Shown here: positions 3,001-4,643 of the stretch, one piece after another
Layout of the letters: every line of letters begins with the position of its first letter
Position numbering within the stretch: the stretch's first letter is position 1
Program-made: the position numbers
DNA from: a virus
Taxonomy: Duplodnaviria; Heunggongvirae; Uroviricota; Caudoviricetes
Reading direction: 5' to 3' (one strand)
Length of the DNA: 4,643 nucleotides
IMG/VR virus record: IMGVR_UViG_2740892230_000003
Coordinates: 1-4,643 of that record

Positions 3001-4643
3001 CAGCTCTTCCGCTTCTTCTGCTGGAAGCACAACGTTGCTACCCGGTCCGTATGTTTCGCGCCAATGCTGGATTGTCAGCAGTCGATCTTTGGTAAAAGTG
3101 GTCATAGCTATTTCACCTTAATCTCAACATTTCGCAGCTTTAGCTCTACTGGCAGGTCTGACTTTCCTGTTAATGCTAATGCGAGATTTTCTGGAGTAGT
3201 GAGAACAGTTATTGTTTTCCCCCTCGCCAGACGAATAATCATGTGTATCTCGCTATCGTCACATGCTCCTGGTCGAACAATTGAGATTTGTCCGTTCATC
3301 TCACNNNNNNNNNNATTACCGGAGAGTTGCCAGCCTCATACGCCACACGCATCCAGTGCATAAGCGTTTCAGTGCTCACACATCCGCAATCAACGTCTAT
3401 TTTTTCTTTTTGTTCTGACAACCATTCCTGGAATGACAGCTTGGCAGTCTGGCTTGCTGGCTCAATTCGTGGCAGGCCGATATATAGCGGTACATTTCCC
3501 GGATCCATCGAATTGTCGGGACAAATAAACGTGTTACAACCATATTTAACGAGCTCAATTCCCGCGGTGTCGATAGTGGCGAATGGTTCAGCGGTCAATG
3601 CAGTCAACGCAATTTCATAAGCACGGCGCTCAATATTGTCCCGCACCCCCAGACTGCTGATATGTTCTTTAATTTCTTTAATTAGCTCTTTGTCGGTAAT
3701 AGTGGTCATAGCTATTTCACCTTAATCTCAACATTTCGCAGCTTTAGCTCTACTGGCAGGTCTGACTTTCCTGTTAATGCTAATGCGAGATTTTCTGGAG
3801 TAATGAGAGCAGTTATTGTTTTCCCCATCGCCAGACGAATAATCATTCGTATTTCGCGATCGTCACATGCTCCTGGTCGAACAATTGATATTTGTCCGTT
3901 CATCTCACTCTCCTTTGATGCGAATGCCAGCGGTACTCATTCTCCTGATTTCCCAGAGCACACGAGGAATACCACCGTTTCCGACCGGATCGCGTTTACT
4001 CCGCAGGGCGACGCTTGATTCCGCCCAGCTTTTTCTTGGAGGAAGCTCTTTCACACGAACAAAACCAGCTGCGCGAAGAGATGCTCCTGATTCATCTGCC
4101 TGGGTGTACGTAATACAACGTTGATAACCCATAGCTTTTGCTGCCCGCCAGACAGCACCATAAAGCGCGCTGTTAGCGTTGCGTTCTCCTGTGGTACATG
4201 TGCGATTTACTTCAAGCGTTAATCCATCGTCCAAATGTCGTGCAACAGGTCGACCAGCTGTCGCCACACCTATCAATTCTCCGGCATTATTTCTCAGACC
4301 AATGCTGAATTTATGCCCCACTGGTGGTTTATTGTGTCGGTGGTGCTGTGCGATAAATTCCTGCGCCGCTTTCAGCGTTATAGGTGAAATGACCATCACT
4401 CAGACTCCTCCTTGATGCCAGCGGCGCTTGCTGATTCTTCATATGCGCGTTTAGCAGCGTTAAGGATTGCTGCCAGTGGCGTATAGCCGCCATCCATTCG
4501 GATTGTGTTGTGGATGCCAGCCATTGTGTCGCGCAATTTGCTGTGGCTAGCAGACAGTTCTGCTATGCGCTTACTTCCATCCGCGATTACTCCCTCGTAA
4601 TACTCGCGTTGCTCGTTGAGTTTTGATTTTGCTTCCTCAAGCT

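Follow-up and report, generated by a model that had tools for sequence, protein, structure and literature searches.

The stretch of phage DNA presented above (4,643 nucleotides, hereafter the window) carries a reading frame that raises a simple question: what does a small and strongly basic protein, whose gene is tightly pressed between its two neighbours, do for the phage that encodes it? The original prediction, made from the sequence alone, had described an uncharacterised basic protein of 163 residues with a possible GNAT-like core, translationally coupled on both sides, and had put it forward as a candidate acyl- or acetyltransferase modifying the host or nucleic acids. We have examined the borders of this gene, its relatives, its predicted fold and its neighbourhood in other phages, and weighed the activities that this protein might possess.

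The reading frame, its borders and its neighbours

The frame of 163 codons was confirmed on the minus strand, where it begins with an ATG at 4396-4394 and ends with a TGA at 3907-3905 (Table 1); an alternative in-frame GTG start lies one codon 5' of this ATG, at 4399-4397. Both predicted junctions were recovered as well: the TGA of the upstream frame (4398-4396) overlaps the ATG to give TGATG, and a single base (3904) separates the stop codon from the ATG (3903-3901) of a downstream gene of 63 aa. The Shine-Dalgarno sequence AAGGAGGAG is located inside the upstream Ea22-like gene, at its 3' end, 8 nt from the ATG and 5 nt from the alternative GTG. Neither promoter-like sites nor minus-strand terminator-like sites were found in 3000-4643, which fits a gene internal to a polycistronic unit, and no RNA element of Rfam was matched at the locus. 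Thousands of homologue clusters, together with annotated copies in E. coli genomes, argue that 3905-4396 is a genuine gene rather than a chance ORF; plus-strand ORFs overlapping it were taken as spurious given the conserved protein encoded on the minus strand. A separate upstream gene of 46 aa was also considered and rejected, as the frame stays open to the window edge and corresponds to the C-terminal part of an Ea22-like gene; Pfam Ead_Ea22 is matched by a neighbour gene.

Table 1. Features of the XF1762 locus, structural elements of the predicted protein and residues aligned with Mu Mom (positions are those of the window)
Feature	Position	Strand	Residues	Conservation in the XF1762 family	Basis
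XF1762-family gene, predicted Mom-like GNAT-fold transferase, 163 aa	3905..4396	-			ORF, NCBIfam NF045478, PHROG 1384, AlphaFold2 model, fold searches
Strong Shine-Dalgarno AAGGAGGAG of the XF1762 gene	4405..4413	-			read from sequence
C-terminal part of ead/Ea22-like gene, upstream neighbour, runs off the window	4396..4643	-			open frame, annotation of matching genomes
63-aa gene, PHROG 1222, downstream, translationally coupled	3712..3903	-			ORF, PHROG
Downstream gene-boundary element CCGCTGGCATTCGCATCAAAGGAGAGTGAgATG	3901..3933	-			sequence comparison
Upstream gene-boundary element CCGCTGGCATCAAGGAGGAGTCTGAGTGATG, diverged copy of the downstream one	4394..4424	-			sequence comparison
H19-R20-H21 motif, a1-b2 loop	4334..4342	-	19-21	each 97-99%	conservation, hhalign
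E62-V-N-R65, end of b4, aligned with Mom E108-L-N-R111	4202..4213	-	62-65		conservation, hhalign
N73-A-N-S76, N-terminus of helix a3, P-loop position	4169..4180	-	73-76		conservation, hhalign
E102-S-G104, b5-a4 loop	4085..4093	-	102-104	E102 98%, G104 99%	conservation
b6-b7 insertion, pLDDT 65-70	3965..4042	-	119-144		AlphaFold2 model, alignment
b1			2-6		AlphaFold2 model
a1			8-18		AlphaFold2 model
b2			30-35		AlphaFold2 model
b3			41-48		AlphaFold2 model
b4			60-68		AlphaFold2 model
a3			74-89		AlphaFold2 model
b5			93-99		AlphaFold2 model
a4			105-109		AlphaFold2 model
b6			113-118		AlphaFold2 model
b7			145-151		AlphaFold2 model
Aligned with Mom A50			A11	98%	hhalign
Aligned with Mom H58			H19	99%	hhalign
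Aligned with Mom E108			E62	98%	hhalign
Aligned with Mom R111			R65	100%	hhalign
Aligned with Mom N121			N73	94%	hhalign
Aligned with Mom S124			S76	95%	hhalign
Aligned with Mom W181, low-confidence pairing			W124	90%	hhalign
Replaces Mom Y59			R20	98% Arg	hhalign
Replaces Mom Y159			L107	92% Leu	hhalign
Replaces Mom W48 (dimer tryptophan)			K9	variable	hhalign

Genomes that lack the XF1762 gene suggest how this arrangement came about. Of the 1289 genomes matching the region, many are devoid of XF1762 and match window positions 3712-3932 only, with the 63-aa gene and an Ea22-like gene. The downstream element CCGCTGGCATTCGCATCAAAGGAGAGTGAgATG encodes a tail foreign to the family, AGIRIKGE, followed by the stop codon and the start of the 63-aa gene, and in XF1762-less genomes it forms the 3' end of the Ea22-like gene, identical save for its first base. 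In O157:H7 ECP19-2498, for instance, the Ea22-like protein ends in VAGIRIKGE, and the XF1762 ORF of the window has at its 3' end exactly the 3' sequence of that gene, CGCTGGCATTCGCATCAAAGGAGAGTGAgATG. The upstream element CCGCTGGCATCAAGGAGGAGTCTGAGTGATG closes the upstream Ea22-like gene and overlaps the XF1762 start. XF1762 homologues terminate soon after the W-E of strand b7 and the family core spans about residues 1-152 of the 163-aa protein; the last eight residues, AGIRIKGE, are a tail borrowed from Ea22. With copies of the Ea22 end at both flanks, the XF1762 core is a cassette bracketed by two gene-boundary elements, and each side receives its ribosome-binding site and its stop-start overlap from this element. 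Because the overlaps come with the element, the translational coupling, whose junctions stand as predicted, reflects the exchange of lambdoid modules and not a functional tie to the neighbours. The 63-aa gene was rejected as a functional partner, given that it directly follows Ea22-like genes in hundreds of XF1762-less genomes.

E. coli 95NR1 has the identical gene in a lambdoid prophage, within the leftward early region; Ea22-like genes border it towards kil, cIII and the anti-RecBCD gene, and DUF551 genes border it on the other side. On the same strand of the window there are, in addition, DUF551, AntA-type antirepressor, TraR/DksA zinc-finger and DUF4752 genes. In its lambdoid prophage, the XF1762 gene forms a single-gene cassette of the early-left accessory region; PADLOC returned no defence-system match for it or for five other genes of the window. 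In other phages, the homologue is found in replication/recombination modules or beside terminase genes. A DNA methyltransferase gene adjoins it in phi1026b and lies four genes upstream of it in a Mycobacterium prophage, in which an HNH endonuclease gene is adjacent, and a C5 methylase is encoded two genes away from the homologue on a Logan contig. For a broader survey, 120 viral loci were collected through a degenerate DNA pattern for GRPVARxLDDG and 36 non-redundant ones were kept. BLAST clustering of the neighbours at these 36 loci revealed no shared partner gene, the largest cluster being present at 2 loci, and a dedicated multi-gene pathway was rejected on this ground. A Pfam scan of the 150 genes located at most three positions from the gene at the same loci gave six DNA methyltransferase matches, along with integrases, helicases, NinB/NinG and terminase subunits.

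Longer members of the family point in the same direction, bearing in mind that these fusions come from metagenomic gene calls and that some may be gene-calling artefacts. XF1762 domains are fused to C5 and N6-adenine (D12) DNA methyltransferases, to resolvase/recombinase, RepA_N, ssDNA-binding protein and HTH domains, to PAPS reductase (two cases) and TupA-like ATP-grasp, as well as to modules of polyvalent proteins (YodL, LPD28, DUF4316, ArdC-N and ART-PolyVal). Taken together, proteins that act on DNA make up most of the recurrent fusion partners and neighbours.

Family assignment and predicted fold

The qualifier "uncharacterised" has to be given up in the database sense. The protein matches NCBIfam NF045478 (XF1762_fam) with 207.2 bits against a cut-off of 50, over residues 3-136, it possesses all the residues conserved in the family, and the identical protein WP_000237063.1 is named XF1762 family protein in E. 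coli 95NR1. It is an exact member of an already known, curated and named family, which takes its name from Xylella fastidiosa XF1762 and which phage databases label "Mom-like". As regards function the qualifier is still appropriate: no study came up in literature searches on the name "XF1762" and on Mom-like GNATs of lambdoid prophages. The family is also a large one. A word-indexed search returned 5866 homologue clusters at 90% identity, about seven times more than the 843 clusters obtained for Mu Mom in the same kind of search, and an exhaustive HMMER search returned 3289 clusters at 50% identity (E<=0.001), 2199 of them with E<=1e-10. Annotated copies, identical or nearly so, are present in 144 of the 5426 complete E. 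coli genomes; XF1762 genes of E. coli prophages include those of phage Kapi1 and of prophages of O157, O103 and O26 strains, and further homologues are encoded by phages that infect Pectobacterium, Burkholderia, Pseudomonas, Vibrio, Mycobacterium, Microbacterium, Streptomyces, Synechococcus and Pelagibacter.

Which enzymes, then, are related to this family? Profile searches matched NF045478, PHROG 1384 and the Pfam family Mom, and no other GNAT family. The Mom profile (PF25680) is the sole Pfam match of the protein (E 3.7e-5, residues 2-110), with 23.9 bits that fall under the gathering score of 27.1 and an alignment limited to the N-terminal two thirds of the profile. PHROG 1384, "Mom-like DNA modification protein", matches the XF1762 protein at 3e-43 and Mu Mom at 8e-84. 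When 100 diverse members of the XF1762 family were scanned, 72 matched Pfam Mom at E<0.01 and none matched any other GNAT or acetyltransferase family of Pfam. Mu Mom, for its part, gives no match to NF045478, and sequence searches of the PDB, either with the single protein or with a profile of 100 sequences, retrieved nothing meaningful and missed the Mu Mom crystal structure 8BV8, so that the link to Mom rests on the Pfam, PHROG and hhalign profiles together with the structure. Aligning the 100-sequence XF1762 alignment with a 58-sequence Mom alignment, hhalign gave E values of 4e-4 (local) and 5e-5 (global) for a probability of 33-39%. With a score below the Pfam threshold, a pairwise BLASTP between the two proteins that is not significant (E 0.23) and an hhalign probability in this range, homology to Mom must be called weak. 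Our comparisons show that XF1762 is a distinct family and that Mom is its only sequence-detectable relative among curated families. Because several attributes of Mom are missing while the core catalytic signature is kept, we file the protein under XF1762 and GNAT and not under Mom proper.

AlphaFold2, run on the 100-sequence XF1762 alignment, produced a model with a pLDDT of 91.4 and a pTM of 0.84, in which the predicted strands and helices (Table 1) follow the GNAT order b1-a1-(a2)-b2-b3-b4-a3-b5-a4-b6-b7. In a Foldseek search of the PDB, 8BV8 came first (E 1.6e-7) with a query-normalised TM-score of 0.69-0.71, the highest among the matches listed, and the remaining matches listed were all GNAT acetyltransferases; 8BV8 is the best or joint-best structural match of the model. 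Among the predicted viral structures of BFVD, the best matches were XF1762-like viral proteins with 33-38% identity, one of them a domain of an 877-aa ART-PolyVal polyvalent protein, and Mom-endonuclease fusions and a Salmonella phage Mom ranked after them. The GNAT fold, initially guessed by eye, is borne out by the model and by this search, and the two segments that had inspired the guess occupy their proposed positions. NANSALYGAVWRAAKAMGY (residues 73-91) covers the loop and helix a3 that follow b4, at the position of GNAT motif A, where canonical GNATs bind the pyrophosphate of CoA, and ESGASLRAAGFVRV (residues 102-115) covers a4-b6, at the position of motif B. The canonical loop between b4 and a3, Q/R-x-x-G-x-G/A, is nevertheless altered: both sequence and model place R72-N-A-N-S-A77 there, in which Arg and Ala fit and Gly is replaced by Asn.

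The basic character of the protein was likewise confirmed, with a pI of 10.5 and 25 Lys and Arg against 13 Asp and Glu, and the predicted N-terminal His/Arg-rich stretch AQHHRHNKPPVGHK corresponds to residues 16-29. Across the XF1762 family, ten positions are occupied by Lys or Arg in 82-100% of the sequences.

Mom signature residues and candidate activities

Mom of phage Mu transfers glycine from Gly-tRNA(Gly) to the N6 of adenine in double-stranded DNA, forming an adduct that rearranges to N6-carbamoylmethyl-dA (Silva et al. 2026, PMC13219725). R111, S124 and R151 of Mom are essential, the D149A mutation greatly reduces activity and H58A, Y59A, W48A, Y159A and W181A reduce it drastically; an HTH-like insertion (about residues 175-209) is indispensable, its deletion killing the enzyme, and a basic N-terminal segment contributes to activity (PMC13219725). 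In addition, Mom binds tRNA at its 3' end and requires no other phage gene (PMC13219725). As judged from the hhalign pairing, the Mom signature residues are kept in XF1762: the essential R111 and S124, together with H58, align with R65, S76 and H19, and all three, like E108 and N121, are invariant or nearly so in the Mom alignment (Table 1). Other parts of Mom are altered or lost. The E102-S-G104 loop is the one that bears D149 and R151 in Mom; it is shorter in XF1762, and within this region, where hhalign is of low confidence, no counterpart of R151 was identified. The b6-b7 insertion (26 residues, with two modelled helical turns of 3 residues each) has the same position in the fold as the HTH-like insertion of Mom, of which it is a truncated version, and a low-confidence hhalign alignment inspected by eye suggests that the missing part is the second helix of Mom, after Gly-Gly. 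The N-terminal extension of Mom, about its first 36 residues, has no counterpart in XF1762.

We propose, with confidence evenly divided for and against, that the XF1762 protein is a compact transferase of the GNAT fold, its core measuring about 150 aa, and a distant and trimmed-down relative of Mu Mom that acylates nucleic acids. Acting alone, it would take an activated acyl group from a host metabolite, be it an aminoacyl-tRNA like the donor of Mom or an acyl-CoA like that of ordinary GNATs, and transfer it to the exocyclic amine of a base in a nucleic acid. The most probable target would be the N6 of adenine in double-stranded phage DNA after replication, and restriction enzymes or other nucleases of the host would thereby act poorly on the DNA. 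Since the basic N-terminal extension, W48, Y59, Y159 and part of the HTH-like insertion of Mom are absent, the donor, the sequence context or the product may differ from those of Mom. The nucleic-acid-modifying role envisaged by the original prediction fits the sole profile relative of the protein, Mu Mom; acetyl-CoA is not to be taken for granted as the donor, because Mom uses Gly-tRNA(Gly) (PMC13219725). Set against the proposed relation to Mom is the location of the XF1762 gene in an early operon, mom of Mu being a late gene. It is tempting, although we regard this extension as rather doubtful, to go one step further and to see in XF1762 a second clade, much larger than that of Mom, of GNATs that acylate nucleic acids and install an undescribed base modification. 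In such a clade, the donor, the target base or its sequence context, or the final adduct may be unlike the N6-carbamoylmethyl-adenine of Mom, and the scaffold may be a minimal one, devoid of the complete HTH-like DNA-binding insertion.

Other activities have to be weighed against this proposal. The protein might be a conventional acetyl-CoA N-acetyltransferase that modifies, in place of nucleic acid, a protein of the host or of the phage or else a small molecule such as a polyamine, an antibiotic-like compound or a signalling nucleotide, with a role in host takeover or anti-defence. This seems unlikely to us when the absence of Pfam acetyltransferase families among the 100 members is set beside the 72 that match Mom, and the invariant residues R65, S76 and H19 are Mom-specific and do not form the usual pair of a general base and a Tyr general acid. 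The position of the a4 Tyr is moreover a Leu in 92% of the family, and DNA enzymes predominate among the fusion partners and neighbours. At the other extreme, XF1762 would be isofunctional with Mom and would use Gly-tRNA(Gly) to form N6-carbamoylmethyl-adenine in DNA exactly as in Mu, on a smaller scaffold. The PHROG common to both proteins, the conservation of the essential R111 and S124 and of H58, and a single-gene system that needs no partner, like that of Mom (PMC13219725), all agree with it, but we find it quite improbable: Y59, Y159, W48, the basic N-terminal segment 11-19 and the full HTH-like insertion are absent or altered, an R151 equivalent was not identified where the alignment is of low confidence, and the protein stays under the Pfam Mom threshold in a separate NCBI family whose model Mu Mom fails to match. 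Nor is there a com-like regulator, the upstream gene being Ea22-like.

A last alternative places the target in RNA: the protein would acylate, for example, a base in tRNA or an aminoacyl-tRNA on its amino group, in the manner of the TacT/AtaT toxins or TmcA, and so modulate host translation early in infection. We consider it very unlikely, even if the protein is very basic and early expression would suit host takeover, and even if tRNA-acting GNATs have precedents and Mom itself binds the 3' end of tRNA (PMC13219725). There is no antitoxin-like partner or conserved neighbour, Mom is the sole Pfam model matched to the exclusion of general acetyltransferase models, PADLOC gives no match and it is with DNA enzymes that the family is associated. 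A toxin-antitoxin pair with a GNAT toxin was set aside, in view of the missing partner and of the missing match to acetyltransferase profiles.

If we return to a Mom-related transferase acting on nucleic acids, the interest of the family extends beyond this locus. The chemistry of Mom, in which an aminoacyl-tRNA is the donor for the modification of a DNA base, was solved in 2026 and "Mom-like GNAT enzymes" were named as the next target (PMC13219725). Among Mom-like GNAT proteins, the XF1762 branch forms the most abundant set, spread over phages of several bacterial phyla, and its carriers include easily induced E. coli prophages (phage Kapi1 and prophages of O157, O103 and O26 strains among them). 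Mom chemically masks phage DNA from host restriction enzymes; should XF1762 also modify DNA, the finding would bear on how phages evade restriction, on their host range and on how base-modification signals are read from sequencing data, and in the opposite case the family would reveal to what extent the active-site motif of Mom can be reused for another substrate. A separate clade, if real, would bring its modification to lambdoid, mycobacterial, Burkholderia, cyanobacterial and marine phages. For the window itself the novelty is modest, the gene being a known and annotated family member.

Comparison with known systems

Within NF045478 and the short members of PHROG 1384, the prophage protein stands out by its last 8-11 residues only. 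Canonical GNATs such as RimI, phosphinothricin acetyltransferase and B. cereus 1Y9K are not matched by XF1762 at the level of sequence profiles; they possess a Gly-rich pyrophosphate loop and an a4 tyrosine, whereas XF1762 has a Mom-type R-N-x-x-S in place of the loop, no a4 tyrosine and an extra insertion between b6 and b7. The corresponding loop of Mu Mom, R-N-S-E-S-R, likewise departs from the canonical pyrophosphate motif.

With Mu Mom (PF25680, 8BV8), XF1762 shares the GNAT fold, PHROG 1384 and the only Pfam family detected, as well as conserved equivalents of H58, E108, R111, N121 and S124, a b6-b7 insertion with a conserved Trp, and the status of a single phage gene without partner genes. 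In contrast, the XF1762 protein is about 80 residues shorter and is devoid of Mom residues 1-36, of W48, Y59 and Y159 and of the full HTH-like insertion. The genetic settings differ too. Mu mom is a tightly regulated late gene, overlapped upstream by com, whereas the XF1762 gene belongs to an early-left unit next to the genes of the kil/cIII side and is overlapped by an Ea22-like gene, with no Com regulator. The fusions of Mom to restriction endonucleases in jumbo phages are weaker matches in BFVD (13-20% identity against 33-38%), and the XF1762 protein is stand-alone, without a nuclease; what brings them close to XF1762 is the recurrence of Mom-like GNAT domains in the conflicts between phages and hosts over DNA (Iyer et al. 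2021, PMC7824862).

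Boundaries of the XF1762 cassette

The XF1762 cassette is bracketed by copies of a gene-boundary element, which is about 30 nt long, follows the pattern CCGCTGGCAT...AAGGAG...GAGTGA(g)ATG and is also found at L128, another locus carrying it (see table). In many E. coli prophages, Ea22-like genes terminate in this same element, downstream of which various genes are found. The element appears to be a linker for recombination in the lambdoid ea region.

Features of the window and of related loci
Feature	Location	Strand	Remark
Gene-boundary element	window 3901-3933	-	
Gene-boundary element	window 4394-4424	-	
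Gene-boundary element	L128 881-921		
63-aa gene, copy adjoining XF1762 gene	window 3712-3903	-	PHROG 1222 (function unknown)
63-aa gene, second copy	window 3108-3299	-	PHROG 1222 (function unknown)
DUF551 protein gene	window 1889-2689	-	
sRNA-Xcc1 (RF02221) match	window 1575-1664	-	Rfam, full length, 65.4 bits vs gathering score 53
AntA-type antirepressor gene (AntA/P22_AR_C)	window 904-1563	-	
TraR/DksA C4 zinc-finger protein gene	window 635-856	-	
DUF4752 gene	window 354-638	-	
'Nmad5 family putative nucleotide modification protein'	L001 13636-14259	leftward operon	annotation in E. coli 95NR1 prophage

Apparent fusions of XF1762 and its duplicated neighbour

In the prophage of E. coli 95NR1 (locus L001), an identical XF1762 gene shares one leftward operon with the Nmad5-family gene. 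Elsewhere, in family proteins P0204, P0163, P0264, P0212 and P0241 and in the predicted viral structure BFVD A0A6J5LU57, the XF1762 domain is apparently fused to C5 and D12 DNA methyltransferases, PAPS reductase, DUF6884, YodL+LPD28 and an ART-PolyVal polyvalent protein, and it is possible that gene-calling artefacts account for some of this set. The 63-aa gene adjoining XF1762 is present twice in the window, the two products being identical at 59 of their 63 residues, and each copy has a DUF551-type gene after it. PHROG 11564, whose annotation is DNA methyltransferase, gives a weak match (E 4e-6) between its C-terminal end and residues 26-60 of the protein.

Mosaic composition of the window

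Three runs of exactly 10 N (window 154-163, 2737-2746 and 3305-3314) are masks or scaffold gaps; they break reading frames, for instance the ORFs at 3296-3709 and 2629-3105, and ORF ends in their vicinity are unreliable. Neither among phage records nor among complete E. coli genomes is there one that carries at least 80% of the window (1-4643) in one place; the best of them cover 45-61% of it, split into several pieces. The order Ea22, XF1762, 63-aa gene over at least 80% of 3712-4643 is found in only 11 genomes. The sRNA-Xcc1 match lies directly upstream of the antirepressor gene, which, like the DUF4752, TraR/DksA and DUF551 genes, is encoded on the same strand as XF1762; together these four form a set of typical lambdoid early-left accessory genes. 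Taken as a whole, the window combines common lambdoid and Stx-phage modules in a rare mosaic.
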